Of a DNA stretch of 64,000 nt, positions 41,598 through 47,594 are shown piece by piece; the first letter of the stretch is position 1, and each line of letters opens with the position of its first letter. The translations under genes and the position numbers were made by a program. The DNA is from Chloroflexota bacterium. GTDB taxonomy: Bacteria; Chloroflexota; Limnocylindria; Limnocylindrales; Limnocylindraceae. The notes below the pieces were generated by a model. That model made no database searches, was not told the DNA's origin, and was given only the letters and a program-made list of their open reading frames with translations. Location: the NCBI GenBank assembly GCA_026389555.1, contig JAPLHQ010000072.1, positions 23,215 to 87,214 on the forward strand, written 5' to 3'.

Positions 41598-42083
41598 TCA
41601 GCCGTGGTCGACAGGCCCTGCGATCGTCTCGCAGGCGTGCTCCAGCACCGGGAGAAGGATGGCGAGACCATCGCGGACTGCGCCGCTCCCACCAGGCATG
41701 TTGACGATCAGACTGCCGCGCAGGACGCCTGCAACGCCGCGCGAGAGGATCGCCGCCGGCGTCTGCGAGCGACCGAGCATGCGAATCGCTTCTGGAATGC
41801 CTGGGATCTCTCGCTCAAGAAGCGGCTTCGTTGCATCAGGTGTTACATCACGCGGCGTCAGTCCCGTGCCACCTGTTGTCAAGATGACGTTGACACTCCC
41901 CGCGCGTTCACTCAGCAGTGCGCTGATCTGGTCGCGCTCGTCTGGAACTGTTGCGCGAGAGACCTCCCAGCCGTGCGCCTCCATTGCGGCGGCGGCGAGG
42001 GTTCCCGAGCGATCTTCTCGCGTCCCAGCGGAGACTGAGTCGCTCACCGTGACAATAAGGACGCTGCGCTTCTCGTCAGCCAT
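41598..42083 (-). CDS. moaB: molybdenum cofactor biosynthesis protein MoaB/MogA family
   Basis: MADEKRSVLIVTVSDSVSAGTREDRSGTLAAA...ILTTGGTGLTPRDVTPDA. Start set at the internal Met; overlaps the moaC end by 8 nt. Confidence 0.85.
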   Translation of the reverse strand: MADEKRSVLIVTVSDSVSAGTREDRSGTLAAAAMEAHGWEVSRATVPDERDQISALLSERAGSVNVILTTGGTGLTPRDVTPDATKPLLEREIPGIPEAIRMLGRSQTPAAILSRGVAGVLRGSLIVNMPGGSGAVRDGLAILLPVLEHACETIAGPVDHG

Positions 42084-42570: not shown

Positions 42571-43929
42571 CTAGCCGTTTGGCGCGGTGATGCGACGTGA
42601 TGCGCGCGGAAGTGGATGCAGCTCAATCACTTCGCCAGCGGCGTACTCAGCAATCTCTTCTGGCACGACCCCCAAATAGTCGGTCCGCGCCAGCACTGAG
42701 ACCTGATGGCTCCCCTGCTCGCCTGCCAGTCGTACCCGTACGCGACCTAATGGATCGTGCAGCGATGCGCCGTCTTCGTCGCGGAGTGCAGCGAGGCGAA
42801 GGAAGGAGCGCCTCCCGAGCGGACTCTCGACGCGCTCCTCAAGCAGTCCAACAGCTCGTAGCCCGCGTGCCGGTCGTCCGCAGAGCGCCCGAAGGAGTGG
42901 GAGCGCAACCTCAACGCCTACGACAAACGCACTCACCGGATTCCCAGGGAGGCCGATCGCCCAGAGTGCGCCATCGCCGCCAGCGCGCCGTCGACCGAGG
43001 AGGAGTGGCTTCCCGGGTTGAATTGCAAGGCGCCAGACGACGAGCTCAAAGGTCGTTGCGAGCGCTGCACCAACATGATCGTGCGCGCCCACGCTGACTC
43101 CTCCTGTTGTCACCAGCAGGTCAGCCTGCGCGGCGAGCGCGGCAACGACCGCACCGGTTGCCTCGGCCGTATCACCAACATGTGCACGCGCAACGACCTC
43201 GCCTCCTTCCGCAGCAATGAGTGCGGCGAGAGCGGGGCCATTACTGTCGCGAATCCCTCCATCAGCCGCGTCGTTGAGTAGTTCATCACCCGTTGTCAGC
43301 AGTGCAACCCTTGGTCGCCGCACAAGGGAGAGATCCGCTGCACCACTCGAAAAGATGACGGCGAGCAGCCCAGCATCAATCGTCGCACCGGCTTCAGCGA
43401 GAAGACTCCCCACGCGCTGATCCTCGCCGCGTCGGCGAATGTGCGCACCGACTTTGACGCGACCGCTCACCCATACATGCGCTGGAAGCTGCGCTGGGAC
43501 GCGCTGCAGTCGTACTCCGCCGCGATCTGGATCCGCGATGCTGCTCCGCTCCACAGGGATCACTGTTGTGCCACCTTCTGGAATTGGTGCGCCAGTAGCA
43601 ATGCGCTGACACTCTCCATCGCGCAGCGGCGCGGCACTTAGTGCGCGACCTGCAGCCGCATCTCCAACGCAGGCGAGTCGCCGCGGCGCGCCGCTGGACG
43701 CTCCATCCCCATCAGCCAACGTCGTAACCCAGCCATCCATTGCCGAAACATCAAACGGGGGGTGATCAACAGCCGCGTAGAGCGGTTCGGCGAGCGTCCG
43801 CCCGATCAGCGAGGCGGCTGTCTCATCACTAATAGCGATTCGCTCCGCAGGGAGCGGCGTGACCTGCGCCAAGAGACGGGCAAGAAGATCGTCAATGCGC
43901 TCAAGCTCCGCTGGAACCGGCTCGCTCAC
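42571..43929 (-). CDS. moeA: molybdopterin molybdenumtransferase MoeA
   Basis: ...VTPLPAERIAISDETAASLIGRTLAEPLYAAVDHPPFDVSAMDGWV and a GGVSVGAHD MoCF-binding domain. The track start at 44001 overlaps the upstream gene. Alignment to the MoeA N-terminus puts the true start near 43917-43929. Confidence 0.88.
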   Translation of the reverse strand: MSEPVPAELERIDDLLARLLAQVTPLPAERIAISDETAASLIGRTLAEPLYAAVDHPPFDVSAMDGWVTTLADGDGASSGAPRRLACVGDAAAGRALSAAPLRDGECQRIATGAPIPEGGTTVIPVERSSIADPDRGGVRLQRVPAQLPAHVWVSGRVKVGAHIRRRGEDQRVGSLLAEAGATIDAGLLAVIFSSGAADLSLVRRPRVALLTTGDELLNDAADGGIRDSNGPALAALIAAEGGEVVARAHVGDTAEATGAVVAALAAQADLLVTTGGVSVGAHDHVGAALATTFELVVWRLAIQPGKPLLLGRRRAGGDGALWAIGLPGNPVSAFVVGVEVALPLLRALCGRPARGLRAVGLLEERVESPLGRRSFLRLAALRDEDGASLHDPLGRVRVRLAGEQGSHQVSVLARTDYLGVVPEEIAEYAAGEVIELHPLPRASRRITAPNG

Positions 43930-45470
43930 TGAAGGCTCTGGAGCAGAAGGATTGAGGCGACCGCTCCGAGCGGTGCGTTGAGCCAGAGGAATCGGCGCCA
44001 TGCAGCACGGGCCGCCCCCCAGCTTGGCCTCCCACGGAGAAGTGGGAGCACCGAGCAGCCGCTTGCGATCGGAATAGCCGCAGCGAGCTGCATCAGCAGG
44101 TTGGGCTGAGCAAGGAGTGGTAGTGCGGCGAGCAGATAGACGAGCAGAATCATCTGCGGGGTACGGCGCTCCCCAAGCAGTGTTGCGACTGTGGCAATCC
44201 CGCTTCGCTTGTCAGCCGACACGTCTTGCAGCGCGCCAAGCGCATGGCTCGCAACGCCCCAGAGCGCAAGGGCCAGAAGTGGCGCGATCCACGCTGAATC
44301 CAACGTGACGCCGAGGAGGAGCCCTGCGGCCGGCGGGATCAGAAAATGTATTGAGGAGACAGCCGAGTCAAGCAGTGGAACCGCACGCGCCCGCACAAGC
44401 CAGGGAGCGCTGTAGAGCGTTGCAAAGAGGATCGCAATCAGCGGCAGAAGGTTCGCCGGCGCAGGGAGGGCGATCGCCATAATCAGCGCCGGCACCAGTC
44501 CCGCCGCCACGAGCGCAACGCGAAGCGGGGCAAGGTCGCGGCCGCGAAGGAGCGCACCCTCCGCACCACCCTTGCGCGGATTTGCCGCGTCACTGGCACG
44601 GTCGTAGAGATCATTGATGCCGTAGAGGTAGAGGTTGTACCCAGCTCCCCACCAGAGGATCGGAGCAAGCAGCCATCCGCCGAGCGTCTCTCCAGCACCG
44701 GCGGCGAGCACACCTCCAACGAATGGGAGCGCGGTGTTTACCCACGAGATTGGCCGCGCAGCGAGGAAGATCCTCCATGCGCTCCCCTCCCCTAGCAGCA
44801 CCTCTGCACGCAAGCGCAACGCCACACCTGCGAGCCCAACGGCATAAAGCAGATCCTCGACTGGCGCTGCGCCAAGCAAGACGCCACTACGTGGCTCCCC
44901 TGGATACGTCAGCACTCCTAGGTGGCAGAGCACGTTATCGAAGATCAGTGTCAACACGATGAAGACGAACGCAGCGACGCGAGTACCGTGATCGCGCCGT
45001 AGTAGTTGCGCGGCAAGCGCCACCCCCGCTCCGGCAAGCACCCCAGCCGCAACGCTGTATTCAGCGCCACTCAAGAGCGCCAGCAGCAACCCGCCACTCA
45101 GTGCGCCAATGCAGGCATCGAACACGCCGCGAGGAAGACCGAGCGTTACGCCGCTGGAAACTCTCCCCTTCCCAACAGCATCAGCAACAACCACAAGAAG
45201 TGATGTGATGCCGAAGAGGAGGAGTGGCTCTTCAATAGGAAACCCGCGACCGAGAGGGCCAGCGCCAGGGAGGGAGAGCACCGTTGCGCTAGAAGGTGTC
45301 GCAAACCACCCTCGAGCGAGCCCAAGTGTATCCACGAGCAGAAACCCAATCGTCGTTGCAATCACAACCGGAAGTAGCACCTCGCGTCGCGTCTGCCGAC
45401 TCCAGCGCAGCGCAAGGCCACGGATGCCAACGATCGAGCCGATGATTGAAAGCAGATAGAGCGCGCTCAT
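43926..45470 (-). CDS. membrane fusion protein: N-terminal lycopene-cyclase-domain half (CrtYc/Yd-like) + C-terminal UbiA-family prenyltransferase (lycopene elongase-like)
   Basis: N-terminal 110 aa has three TM helices and GFPIEEPLLLFGITSLL (PxEE-xxF cyclase-domain signature). C-terminus has YGINDLYDRASDAANPRKGG (NDxxDxxxD), ALQDVSADKRSGIATVA (DxxxD..G..T) and multiple TM helices. Confidence 0.6.
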   Translation of the reverse strand: MSALYLLSIIGSIVGIRGLALRWSRQTRREVLLPVVIATTIGFLLVDTLGLARGWFATPSSATVLSLPGAGPLGRGFPIEEPLLLFGITSLLVVVADAVGKGRVSSGVTLGLPRGVFDACIGALSGGLLLALLSGAEYSVAAGVLAGAGVALAAQLLRRDHGTRVAAFVFIVLTLIFDNVLCHLGVLTYPGEPRSGVLLGAAPVEDLLYAVGLAGVALRLRAEVLLGEGSAWRIFLAARPISWVNTALPFVGGVLAAGAGETLGGWLLAPILWWGAGYNLYLYGINDLYDRASDAANPRKGGAEGALLRGRDLAPLRVALVAAGLVPALIMAIALPAPANLLPLIAILFATLYSAPWLVRARAVPLLDSAVSSIHFLIPPAAGLLLGVTLDSAWIAPLLALALWGVASHALGALQDVSADKRSGIATVATLLGERRTPQMILLVYLLAALPLLAQPNLLMQLAAAIPIASGCSVLPLLRGRPSWGAARAAWRRFLWLNAPLGAVASILLLQSLQ

Positions 45471-46217
45471 CTATCGCCTCCGTCGTCGTGCGGCACGGAA
45501 GCCGGCCGCCGCGGTAACGACGAGCACAGCACAGAATCCAATCGCCGCCGCCACCCAGAAGGTTTCGGGGTAGAGCTGCACCAGACGATCCGTTGCGGGA
45601 TTAAATGTCCAGGTCCCTGCTGGGAAGAGCAGCTGATGTGCTGCGGTGAACGTTGCATCAAAGGCGAAGAGGAAGGCGCCTCCAACGAGCGCAGCTCCCG
45701 CGCCAAGCAGCACCGCTCCATCGCGAACCCCTTGCAGCGCCCATCGCCTTCGTCGCACGGCGAGCAGAGAGAGGAGAGCAAACGCACCTGCGCCGACCAG
45801 AACGAGCGCACGAAAGAGGACGCCAACATCTACAAGATGTGAGCGTTCAGCAGCGCTCAAGAAGACGTCGTCGCCCAGTTGTGCGTTAAAGGCTCCACCG
45901 AAGAGGAGATCGCGTACGAGCGCATCAGAGAGCGCATACGCAGTCGGTGGTTCAACTCCGAGAAGGGCGGGGGCGCTCGAAAGGTCGAGCAGCGCATGGA
46001 CGACGGGTGGAAGAAGGAAGAGGAGCAGCGTGAGAGCGAGCAGCGCAACCAGCACCACAACGGCCAGCAGCGCTCGCCGCGCGACGCGGCGCAACGCGTT
46101 CACGCGTCGACGAGGACGCGACCCTGCTCCCACCATGACCTGACTGAGAGCGGATCTGGCGCAACTCGTCCGAGCAGGACTGCCGCTCGTGTTACCGCAG
46201 CCTGGAAGTCTCCCCAC
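45471..46217 (-). CDS. DUF1461/TIGR01906-type integral membrane protein (Lit-like, lipoprotein intramolecular transacylase family)
   Basis: TM helix; DLSSAPALLGVEP; FLSAAERSHLVDVGVLF (E..H..DV motif I associate with DUF1461/Lit); a further TM block. Start codon is GTG per the track and the N-terminus is uncertain. Stop abuts the start of the downstream fusion gene. Confidence 0.45.
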   Translation of the reverse strand: MGRLPGCGNTSGSPARTSCARSALSQVMVGAGSRPRRRVNALRRVARRALLAVVVLVALLALTLLLFLLPPVVHALLDLSSAPALLGVEPPTAYALSDALVRDLLFGGAFNAQLGDDVFLSAAERSHLVDVGVLFRALVLVGAGAFALLSLLAVRRRRWALQGVRDGAVLLGAGAALVGGAFLFAFDATFTAAHQLLFPAGTWTFNPATDRLVQLYPETFWVAAAIGFCAVLVVTAAAGFRAARRRRR

Positions 46218-46528
46218 TCGCTCTCCGCGAGTGCCTGAATCCCGGGGTAGCCCGCCGCTGCGAGCAGCTGATGTTCGGATGGGCCGAAGAAGGCGAGATT
46301 CAGGAGCAGTGCCTCATCTCGCCACTCGCCAACATCGGCAAGGGAGGCGTCGGTCTGGTCGGCAAGGGTCTGGCGACGTGTTGGGGTCTCGCTCCGTTCA
46401 AGGAGGAGGCCCGTTGTGAAGATCCCCTGCGCCTCAAGGCGCGCGAGGTGGACCGGCTCGATGCGTGTGAGCTGAACGATCGCTGGCATCAGTACCTCCT
46501 CGCGGCATCGTAGCGCCTCCCCCCTCAC
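46100..46528 (-). CDS. DUF4332 domain protein (tandem HhH-like motifs)
   Basis: LTRIEPVHLARLEAQGIFTTGLLLERSETPTRRQTLADQTDASLADVGEWRDEALLLNLAFFGPSEHQLLAAAGYPGIQALAE fits the DUF4332 two-repeat pattern. Probable start is Met at 46489. Confidence 0.5.
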   Translation of the reverse strand: MRGEALRCREEVLMPAIVQLTRIEPVHLARLEAQGIFTTGLLLERSETPTRRQTLADQTDASLADVGEWRDEALLLNLAFFGPSEHQLLAAAGYPGIQALAESEWGDFQAAVTRAAVLLGRVAPDPLSVRSWWEQGRVLVDA

Positions 46529-46570: not shown

Positions 46571-46663
46571 CGCAACCCCCGTAGCGGCTAGTGAATCTTT
46601 CGGTCATTTGCGCCATAATCGCCCCAGCGGTGCGTTGTGCCGCCAAAAGGTTAGGGAGGGTCA

Positions 46664-47407
46664 ATGAGTCCAGAGTTGGGATATCAGTTGGTCTATAACT
46701 TTATGTCCCTCGCCATCGCGGCGATGGGTGCGAGCTTCTTCTTCTTCGTCTCCGCAAGGGGATCGCTGAAGGAAGGGAACCGCATGGCAGTCACGCTGTC
46801 AGCCACTGTTGTGCTGATCGCGTTCTACCACTACGTCCGCATCTTCGACTCGTGGGTCGCCACGGCGGGTGTCGGAAACCCAGGCGCGTTCAACGAGGGC
46901 TACCGCTACGTTGACTGGCTCCTCACGGTGCCACTCCTCGTCGCAGAGCTGATCCTCGTCCTTCGCTTGGACAAGAAGGTTGAGAGCAAGCTGATCCAGC
47001 GAAACGTGCTCTACGCCTTCCTCATGATCGCAACCGGATACATCGGCGAGTTGGATGTCCAGACCTCCGTGGTTCTTGACTCCTCACGCACGATCTGGGG
47101 CGCTATCAGCACGATCTTCTTCGTCCTGATCTTGCGCGACCTCTTCGGTGGGATTGATGCTTCCTTCAAGAAGCAGAGCAAGGAGATCCAGGGGATCTTC
47201 AAGGTACTCCGCGTTGTGCTTATCGCCACGTGGGGTGTCTATCCAATCGCCTATCTCCTTCCAACGATTTCGACCAGCCTCGGCCTGACGGCTGGGGACG
47301 GGCTCGTGCTGAAGCAGATCGGTTACACGATTGCGGACATCCTGGCGAAGCCAGGCTACGGTCTCCTCATCTGGAAGATCGCAACCCTGAAGAACTCAGG
47401 CCGCTAA
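46664..47407 (+). CDS. type-1 microbial rhodopsin, proteorhodopsin/xanthorhodopsin-like outward proton pump (DTE motif)
   Basis: 247 aa, 7 TM. Helix C RYVDWLLTVPLLVAE gives D84/T88/E95 (BR D85/T89/D96 positions). L at the PR-105 tuning position. His56 in AFYHYV (PR His75 equivalent). Helix F ATWGVYPIAY. Helix G TIADILAKPGYGLLIW with counterion D225 and Schiff-base K229. Strong RBS. GC about 56 % against about 68 % in the flanks. Confidence 0.9.
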   Translation: MSPELGYQLVYNFMSLAIAAMGASFFFFVSARGSLKEGNRMAVTLSATVVLIAFYHYVRIFDSWVATAGVGNPGAFNEGYRYVDWLLTVPLLVAELILVLRLDKKVESKLIQRNVLYAFLMIATGYIGELDVQTSVVLDSSRTIWGAISTIFFVLILRDLFGGIDASFKKQSKEIQGIFKVLRVVLIATWGVYPIAYLLPTISTSLGLTAGDGLVLKQIGYTIADILAKPGYGLLIWKIATLKNSGR

Positions 47408-47418
47408 ACAGATCGAAC

Positions 47419-47468
47419 ACGCGACTCGTGTCGCGTAGAAAAGGCCCGGGGGAAACCCCGGGCCTTTT
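47419..47468. terminator. tandem hairpins; bidirectional rho-independent terminator between rhodopsin (+) and tRNA-Pro (-)
   Basis: Hairpin 1 is ACGCGAC-tcgt-GTCGCGT (47419-47436). Hairpin 2 is GGCCCGGGG-GAAA-CCCCGGGCC (47443-47464), flanked by AAAA on the 5' side and TTTT on the 3' side. Confidence 0.75.
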
Positions 47469-47482
47469 CATATCTTGTGATC

Positions 47483-47559
47483 TGGTCGGAGCGACAGGAT
47501 TTGAACCTGCGACCTCTTGCCCCCCAGGCAAGCGCGCTACCAAGCTGCGCTACGCTCCG
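47483..47559 (-). tRNA. tRNA-Pro (anticodon GGG)
   Basis: Reverse complement CGGAGCGTAGCGCAGCTTGGTAGCGCGCTTGCCTGGGGGGCAAGAGGTCGCAGGTTCAAATCCTGTCGCTCCGACCA. C1-G72 is typical of bacterial tRNA-Pro. Anticodon stem CUUGC/GCAAG with loop CUGGGGG. Encoded CCA. Confidence 0.88.
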
Positions 47560-47594
47560 TTTAACTACGCTCCGTTTAACTACGCTCCGTTTGA
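47550..47594. repeat. three tandem 15-nt direct repeats (CTACGCTCCGTTTAA); the first copy is the tRNA-Pro 5' end
   Basis: Copies at 47550-47564, 47565-47579 and 47580-47594 (last copy ...TTTGA). On the minus strand the tRNA's first 10 nt CGGAGCGTAG recur twice in the 5' leader, separated by TTAAA. Confidence 0.8.

Follow-up and report, generated by a model that had tools for sequence, protein, structure and literature searches.

The rhodopsin locus and its source lineage

The window analysed here is a 64-kb stretch of contig JAPLHQ010000072.1 from a Chloroflexota bacterium (assembly GCA_026389555.1; coordinates are those of the window unless a related locus is named), and our subject is a rhodopsin gene within it, together with a carotenoid-type gene 1.2 kb upstream. 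The rhodopsin coding sequence (46664..47407, plus strand) encodes a xanthorhodopsin-like protein of 247 amino acids, predicted to be an outward proton pump, and lies exactly where an earlier annotation, made from the letters alone and called below the sequence-only reading, had placed it. The Shine-Dalgarno (SD) sequence GGGAGG (46654..46659, plus strand) is found 4 nt 5' of the ATG, and a GGAGG-type SD is kept in relatives. Because this SD is present and YQLVYN aligns with the N-terminus of the xanthorhodopsin (XR) clade, the longer start of 247 residues is supported over the 234-residue calls in some JGI records. The second gene (43926..45470, minus strand) encodes a protein of 514 residues, composed of two cyclase repeats and a UbiA-type, lycopene-elongase-like prenyltransferase. 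The surroundings had been described as housekeeping, which holds for most genes, but this carotenoid-pathway gene had been missed, and the rhodopsin locus is thus not purely housekeeping.

Proteins from metagenome-assembled genomes (MAGs) labelled as Chloroflexota or as Ca. Limnocylindrus xanthorhodopsin match the rhodopsin at 98-100 % identity. One, from a Chloroflexota MAG, agrees in every residue (100 %), and another, at 99 %, is annotated as xanthorhodopsin of Candidatus Limnocylindrus sp. ZSMar2m-chloro-G89, a MAG with which the neighbouring genes share 95-98 % identity. The lineage is Chloroflexota; Limnocylindria; Limnocylindraceae, and the chromosome, which had been taken as Firmicutes-like, is that of a Chloroflexota host (Ca. 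Limnocylindrus) and not of a Firmicute. Lake metagenomes contain about 100 further variants at 90 % identity or more. When 15 billion proteins are clustered at 50 % identity, the clade falls into a cluster of its own, and the nearest representatives outside it, one of them from a Jiangellales MAG, are at most 49 % identical.

This rhodopsin is already known, since the clade was described by Mehrshad et al. in 2018 (PMC6169038) and its family-level gain in a 2026 study (PMC13212565). The former named the genus Limnocylindrus and reported that the SL56 rhodopsins are closest to xanthorhodopsins, green-tuned and possibly antenna-binding, 10 of 12 salinixanthin-binding residues being kept in at least one sequence. 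The latter found rhodopsins in 65 Limnocylindraceae genomes and in none of the soil sister lineages, and placed the gain, described as one of proton-pumping rhodopsins, at the base of this freshwater family. The rhodopsin itself is thus nothing new, and its value lies in the genomic context.

The rhodopsin belongs to the xanthorhodopsin-like clade

The protein matched the Pfam family Bac_rhodopsin (PF01036) with 138 bits (E 4.3e-40, cut-off 24.6), residues 14-241 covering profile positions 7-222 of 224. A phmmer search of all PDB chains returned six best matches, all from the XR clade, at 153-185 bits over residues 7-244: xanthorhodopsin SrXR 3DDL (1.6e-53, 185 bits), 9hfk, psXR 9wfa, GR 6nwd, Kin4B8 7ytb and Thermus TR 5azd (153 bits). 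The other solved groups (Na+ pumps, Cl- pumps, proteorhodopsins, ESR and bacteriorhodopsin, BR) remained at or below 97 bits. Identity reached 45-48 % with SrXR, GR and psXR, 41 % with Kin4B8, 31 % with the proteorhodopsin GPR and 30 % with BR. Placement in the XR clade is based on this gap in bit score and on the pairwise identities, and the match to solved XR structures, at 1e-53 over 96 % of the length, fixes the fold. The sequence-only reading had assigned the protein to a broad class of proteorhodopsin, XR and actinorhodopsin pumps. Its pump-type assignment, with the DTE motif and the histidine, was borne out, and within that class the protein belongs to the xanthorhodopsin-like clade. 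Proteorhodopsin proper was rejected (79 bits and 31 % identity, far under the XR-clade matches). The actinorhodopsin subgroup was rejected as well, since the proline in mid-helix D that marks it (bioRxiv 10.1101/367102) is absent from helix D of our protein (SKLIQRNVLYAFLMIATGYIGE, residues 108-129).

Residues H56, D84, T88, L92, E95, D225 and K229 were confirmed by script in both identity and numbering; RYVDWLLTVPLLVAE corresponds to residues 81-95 in helix C and ADILAK to residues 224-229. A reference alignment was assembled from PDB-derived sequences (SrXR, GR, psXR, Kin4B8), GPR validated against PDB 8cqc, and BR. In this alignment the seven residues match SrXR H62/D96/T100/L104/E107/D236/K240, whose equivalents in GPR are H75/D97/T101/L105/E108/D227/K231; those in BR are D85/T89/D96/D212/K216. 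The alignment recovers the published numbers of every reference (GR H87/D121/E132/G178/K257, Kin4B8 G153/A205, psXR G172/L224, GPR H75/D97/L105/E108/K231 and BR D85/D96/W138/K216), and the residue mapping can therefore be trusted. The DTE motif, D84/T88/E95, stands opposite BR D85/T89/D96. Neither D84 nor K229 had been misassigned, K229 aligning with BR K216, GPR K231 and SrXR K240. His56 is the equivalent of GPR H75 (SrXR H62), which pairs with the acceptor Asp position, Leu92 occupies the green-tuning position of GPR L105, and WLLTVPLL in helix C is an exact match to the proteorhodopsin.

At the position of XR Gly156, to which the sequence-only reading had pointed, the protein has Gly146, where BR has Trp138. 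This fenestration glycine is needed for a carotenoid antenna (PMC12779958). All these functional residues, G146 included, are invariant in 35 of 35 related rhodopsins. Of nine positions that contact the carotenoid in SrXR, our protein has the same residue at five and a conservative replacement at two, and differs at the other two (V181 and T201).

The upstream gene encodes a CrtYe-CrtYf-CrtEb fusion

The 514-residue protein was compared with carotenoid enzymes by profile methods. HHalign matched residues 1-101 to CrtYe (96.3 %, E 1.7e-9) and residues 162-217 to CrtYf (98.8 %, E 1e-16), and the UbiA half matched PF01040 with 69.9 bits. Each cyclase repeat carries a P-x-E-(E/D) motif (PIEE at 78-81, PVED at 203-206), and the prenyltransferase half carries NDxxD at 286-290 and D416xxxD420. 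In ten fusion homologues of 42-74 % identity both cyclase motifs are invariant, and so are N286-D287-x2-D290, D294 and D416-x3-D420.

Actinobacterial prenyltransferases of 295 residues share about 40 % identity with the UbiA half. One such homologue, in Cellulomonas bogoriensis (L011), is the last gene of a cluster with the order idi-crtE-crtB-crtI, a 117-residue protein, a 113-residue Lycopene_cyc protein and UbiA. A scan of 185,579 species genomes, of which the 80 best-scoring loci were kept, recovered the order crtE-B-I-Ye-Yf-Eb in 44 of 44 Actinomycetota loci from GTDB genomes, and the gene that ends the cluster, in L011 and in all 44, shares 36-44 % identity with the UbiA half. This is the gene order of a C50-carotenoid cluster, whose lycopene elongase is named CrtEb in PMC7734400. 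The domain order of the fusion is collinear with this gene order. Profile homology, collinear domains and invariant motifs thus identify the protein as a CrtYe-CrtYf-CrtEb fusion.

Homologues of the UbiA half were also seen fused to GT2 glycosyltransferase domains in proteins of about 685 residues (P0183-P0192), an arrangement consistent with glycosylated C50-carotenoid pathways.

Rhodopsin and fusion genes are strictly linked

Among the best 80 loci of the genome scan, the full-length fusion was found solely in 36 Limnocylindria MAGs. A rhodopsin of the present clade lies beside it in 29 of these, and the contigs of the other 7 end before the expected position, so that all informative loci (29/29) carry both genes. 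The reciprocal search, seeded with the rhodopsin in JGI metagenome contigs (78-100 % rhodopsin identity, at least 1.3 kb of upstream sequence), gave the fusion in 36 of 36. Contigs with more distant XR-like rhodopsins from other taxa (41-48 %) had none. The pairing was read from the window and from loci L012-L047 and L092-L159.

The pair was recovered in three unrelated contexts. One is the gpsA/moeA neighbourhood of the window; another contains NhaA, DinB and metallophosphatase genes (L003, L043, L045, L117/118); the last contains PMSR and, downstream, DUF1761, P450 and a further UbiA protein (L004, L039, L041). In the latter two the intervening genes are lost and the pair lies closer together, about 100-340 nt apart (132 nt in L117/L118). 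Since the pair is kept in unrelated neighbourhoods, a functional tie is argued for over frozen synteny.

Two side observations concern the PMSR context. In L004 (5624-9195; also in L039 and L041), genes for DUF1761, a cytochrome P450 and another UbiA-family protein, of 632 residues, come after the rhodopsin and possibly modify carotenoids as well. The fusion annotated in L004 has 416 residues and a single cyclase repeat.

No description of the rhodopsin-fusion linkage was found in the searchable literature. In the files of PMC13212565, terms for retinal, blh and carotene are absent, as are K02291, K10027, K21817, K20616, K04641 and K06443; the table of Mehrshad 2018, checked for carotenoid and retinal genes, covers Chloroflexia only; and a preprint on Blh promiscuity holds no C50 data. 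Apparent matches to 'crtEb' in a paper on acI were discarded as false positives from the string 'CrtEBI'.

A covarying hairpin lies in the rhodopsin leader

Upstream of the rhodopsin gene, on the plus strand, a -10-like box CATAAT (46614..46619), which may be part of a promoter, is followed after 7 nt by a hairpin, GCGGTGC-GTT-GTGCCGC (46627..46643), in the 5' untranslated region (5'-UTR). No -35 consensus was found, and a sigma-70 consensus scan of the window gave no full promoter. The same arrangement is present in 37 of 37 related loci: a -10-like box (CATAAT, GATAAT, GATACT or TAAGAT), 7-9 nt, the hairpin, an A-rich spacer and a GGAGG-type SD. The hairpin arms occur in 11 variants, and it is the structure, not the sequence, that is kept. 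At four of the five core pairs both bases have changed together in a compensatory manner (C-G/U-A or G-C/A-U), none is broken, and G-U intermediates are seen on the sense strand only. As G-U pairs are valid on that strand only, the hairpin is an RNA element of the rhodopsin leader.

A comparable hairpin appears in 16 % of shuffles. The element matches no Rfam family, the Rfam search of the window returning tRNAs only, and RNAalifold found no structure in a MAFFT alignment of the 5'-UTR hairpins, a null that we attribute to the alignment because MAFFT misplaces the loop-length gaps. The hairpin probably lies at or near the 5' end of the mRNA, and we infer that it likely acts as a stabiliser shielding the messenger from 5'-end-dependent decay.

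At the other end of the gene, a GC-rich hairpin of 14 bp (AAAAGGCCCGGGG...CCCCGGGCCTTTT, 47438..47469), terminator-like on the plus strand, lies between the convergent rhodopsin and tRNA-Pro genes. It is found at the same position in L002, L009, L022, L025, L029, L044 and L047, and may terminate transcription in both directions.

The rhodopsin gene is an old trait of the family

The suggestion of the sequence-only reading that the rhodopsin had been recently gained was not upheld, the gene occupying the same syntenic slot in all informative related genomes with native GC content at the third codon position (GC3). This slot, with gpsA, tRNA-Pro(GGG) and the rhodopsin, then divergently DUF4332, Lit, the fusion and moeA, recurs in Ca. 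Limnocylindrus and Ca. Aquidulcis. It holds in species-representative genomes down to GpsA identities of 62-65 %, at which the rhodopsins are still 82-84 % and the fusions about 50 % identical; the rhodopsin is the most conserved gene of the locus. Its GC content is 0.57, against 0.62-0.68 in the flanks. By codon position it is 0.54 at the first and 0.39 at the second, with a GC3 of 0.79, equal to or above that of the neighbours. The low GC thus stems from codon positions 1 and 2 of a hydrophobic protein, and the dip, gone at position 3, was rejected as a sign of recent transfer. No integrase, repeat or att-like duplication brackets the module. The rhodopsin has long been in the family, kept by vertical descent, and is not a recent import; an ancient gain at the family base is likely.

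Other features of the window

Between the fusion and the rhodopsin lie two minus-strand genes which overlap by 4 nt (45471-46528). One encodes a membrane protein of the Lit/TIGR01906 family (45471..46217 as maximal open reading frame (ORF), relatives suggesting a start near 46103). The other encodes a DUF4332 protein (46100..46528 as maximal ORF, with a start near 46489 suggested by relatives), and is the first gene of the divergent operon. DUF4332, Lit, fusion, moeA and moaC form a tight minus-strand operon in which carotenoid and molybdenum-cofactor genes are mixed. In the rearranged architectures the DUF4332 and Lit genes are lost.

On the other side, tRNA-Pro(GGG) (47483..47559, minus strand) has its 3' end facing the rhodopsin terminator; this flank is kept in the main architecture and absent in the alternatives. 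Its 5' end is overlapped by a perfect tandem repeat of 2.9 copies (47545-47594) of a 15-nt unit (CTACGCTCCGTTTAA), which duplicates the first 10 nt of the tRNA gene and the upstream junction. Extra copies number two in the window and one in a few of its nearest relatives (L001, L093-L096), with none in other lineages, a pattern that looks like slippage at strain level.

Housekeeping genes in the window include asd, rnj, hflX, rny, recA, tgt, ruvAB, tyrS, mutS2, pheST, infC, thrS, dcd, nrdR, moaC/moeA, gpsA, der, ispH, plsC, cmk, scpA, xerC/D, nadK, dxs, xseAB and efp. As the sequence-only reading had noted, the 64 kb contain no transducer and no second rhodopsin. A GC3-based gene call also proposed a plus-strand ORF of 144 residues with no Pfam match at 41604-42038. 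It is probably spurious, because L002, L005 and L009 carry a minus-strand MoCF_biosynth gene (moaB/mog-like, 160-161 residues) at the equivalent place.

Discussion

The sequences themselves show identity, motifs, clade, synteny, linkage and covariation in the RNA; from these we infer how the protein would work, what colour it would have, whether it could bind a carotenoid and what the fusion would make. In the mechanism proposed here, K229 would bind all-trans retinal as a protonated Schiff base, whose proton would pass, once the retinal has photoisomerised, to D84, coupled to H56 as in proteorhodopsin and XR, with D225 as second counterion, and E95 would reprotonate the Schiff base from the cytoplasm. 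L92 is predicted to set a green absorption maximum. G146 would open the fenestration in helix E, where a ring-bearing carotenoid could dock at the retinal ring as antenna. The rhodopsin gene is monocistronic, with its own -10-like box, 5'-UTR hairpin, strong SD and hairpin terminator. The fusion enzyme most likely makes the cell's cyclic carotenoid, which might serve the rhodopsin as antenna, as photoprotectant and/or through a ring-forming step towards the chromophore.

It seems very probable to us that the ORF encodes a xanthorhodopsin-like pump which uses light to move protons outward. Motifs occasionally mislead, and since pump function is here deduced from sequence, other functions have to be weighed, whether sensory, inward-pumping or Na+/Cl--pumping. 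Such a function is scarcely credible for a protein whose motif is DTE and not NDQ, NTQ, TSA or xenorhodopsin-type, which has both the carboxylic donor E95 and the His-Asp pair, which is adjacent to no transducer or signalling partner, and which matches Na+ and Cl- pump structures with 81-97 bits against 153-185 for the XR clade. A recent horizontal acquisition, for instance by insertion of an island at the tRNA-Pro 3' end, could be read from the GC dip relative to the flanks, from the position of the gene directly 3' of that tRNA, from the rhodopsin-less soil sister lineages of the class (PMC13212565) and from the limit of 49 % identity to the nearest relatives outside Limnocylindria. We regard it as highly improbable, given that GC3 matches or exceeds that of the neighbours, that every informative genome has the same slot filled, even at 62 % gpsA identity, and that integrase and att sites are absent from the flanks, the 15-nt repeat lying at the 5' side of the tRNA and being strain-specific.

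We propose tentatively, as a possible but doubtful reading, that rhodopsin and fusion form a co-inherited two-gene light-harvesting module in which the fusion directly serves the chromophore or the antenna. Its carotenoid would then be either a chromophore precursor, through a blh-independent route as postulated for Aurantimicrobium minutum, or an antenna of C45/C50 type at G146, and the 5'-UTR hairpin would be a dedicated expression element. Several observations weigh against the interpretation of the locus as a whole, pump and fusion together. The cyclase domain scores under the Pfam and NCBIfam cut-offs (20-26 against 27 bits; 33.5 against 39.4), being sub-threshold on TIGR03462 taken alone, and the prenyltransferase is under that of PRK13105 (200 against 217). 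Neither the window nor the 10 kb around the locus in relatives contains blh/brp, crtB, crtI or crtE. Five of nine SrXR carotenoid contacts are identical, the glycine being necessary and not sufficient for an antenna, and the searched literature shows no experiment on any Limnocylindria rhodopsin. With scores below cut-off and crtE, crtB and crtI missing within 10 kb, membership of the fusion in a C50 pathway is probable, not proven. The same absence of blh, crtB and crtI would fit a retinal auxotroph, which makes the opsin, has a working pump only with retinal scavenged from its neighbours and keeps the carotenoid gene for photoprotection only. This is quite plausible without being probable, and it is compatible with the protein as proton pump: the genomes are highly streamlined, and blh-less rhodopsin bearers are common in freshwater plankton, Chloroflexi being named among them (PMC7734400; PMC12422013). 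Only 64 kb of the genome are visible, however, and blh or a CCD could be elsewhere; A. minutum, with the same gene set (XR-like rhodopsin, crtYe/Yf, crtEb, no blh), does make retinal (PMC7734400); and strict co-inheritance with a ring-forming carotenoid enzyme in three contexts argues for a functional tie. That co-inheritance would carry no functional meaning if the adjacency were simply inherited synteny in a small compact genome. Most loci do share one architecture, the operon also holds unrelated molybdenum-cofactor genes, and rhodopsin and fusion are divergent and not co-transcribed. We nevertheless consider this rather unlikely, as the adjacency persists in at least three otherwise unrelated neighbourhoods, the rearranged loci drop the intervening genes so that the pair moves closer, and the full-length fusion, among the best 80 loci, is restricted to Limnocylindria MAGs and adjoined by the rhodopsin wherever the contig reaches.

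Many abundant freshwater and marine rhodopsin bearers are devoid of blh, the sole known bacterial retinal synthase, and the source of their chromophore poses a question (PMC7734400). In the loci described here a ring-forming C50-type enzyme, encoded by one gene, is tied to one rhodopsin clade with no exception, even after rearrangement. The interest of the locus lies in this strict pairing with a single-gene cyclase/elongase of C50 type and in the covarying leader hairpin.

Comparison with known systems

SrXR (3DDL), described like GR as an outward proton pump (PMC12779958), is the best solved match, with 45 % identity over 236 aligned residues. It shares H62/D96/T100/L104/E107/G156/D236/K240 and the helix-C motif RYVDWLLTVPLL with our protein and, among the salinixanthin contacts, L148, G156, T160, I205 and Y207 (SrXR numbers). 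At other contacts our protein differs by N191V, M208L and M211T. Compared with SrXR, GR and Kin4B8, its B-C loop (residues 66-76) lacks about 6 residues; its D-E loop is longer than in SrXR, and it has GYIGE (residues 125-129) where all five XR-clade reference structures have GYPGE. The B-C loop and GYIGE are small differences specific to the clade. The hosts also differ, a halophilic relative of Bacteroidota for SrXR and a freshwater monoderm Chloroflexota here, with no ketocarotenoid pathway evident in the latter.

The Gloeobacter rhodopsin GR (6NWD), the Antarctic cyanobacterial psXR (9WFA) and the freshwater Kin4B8 (7YTB/8I2Z) have the same DTE/His/Gly set, at identities of 48 %, 48 % and 41 %. 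At the fenestration-shaping position Kin4B8-A205/psXR-L224 (PMC12779958) our protein has Leu198, as do psXR and GR. Keto- or hydroxy-carotenoid antennas have been demonstrated for these three, and no cyclase-elongase fusion accompanies their genes. GPR (2L6X/8CQC) has DTE, His75, Leu105 and WLLTVPLL in common with our protein, but at 31 % identity and 79 bits it differs in having a signal peptide and a Pro at the SrXR Gly156 position.

Fusion of a cyclase subunit to an elongase is seen in Dietzia LbtBC. In the decaprenoxanthin-type clusters of Actinomycetota (Krubasik 2001 as cited in PMC7734400), crtYe, crtYf and crtEb are separate genes, whereas a single 514-residue protein combines them here; this fusion lies outside any crt cluster and scores under the curated family cut-offs. 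The closest parallel in gene content is offered by A. minutum and the Luna-1 Actinobacteria, freshwater plankton whose small genomes encode an XR-like pump along with crtYe/Yf and crtEb, blh being usually absent. A. minutum makes retinal all the same, for which its authors proposed an unknown route via C50-type enzymes (PMC7734400), and in Luna-1 genomes crtEb lies among the crt genes and its transcription accompanies that of actinorhodopsin (PMC12422013). In these Actinobacteria the three carotenoid genes are separate and part of a crtE-B-I cluster, whereas in Limnocylindria they are fused into one gene, away from crtE, crtB and crtI, and stand beside the opsin.

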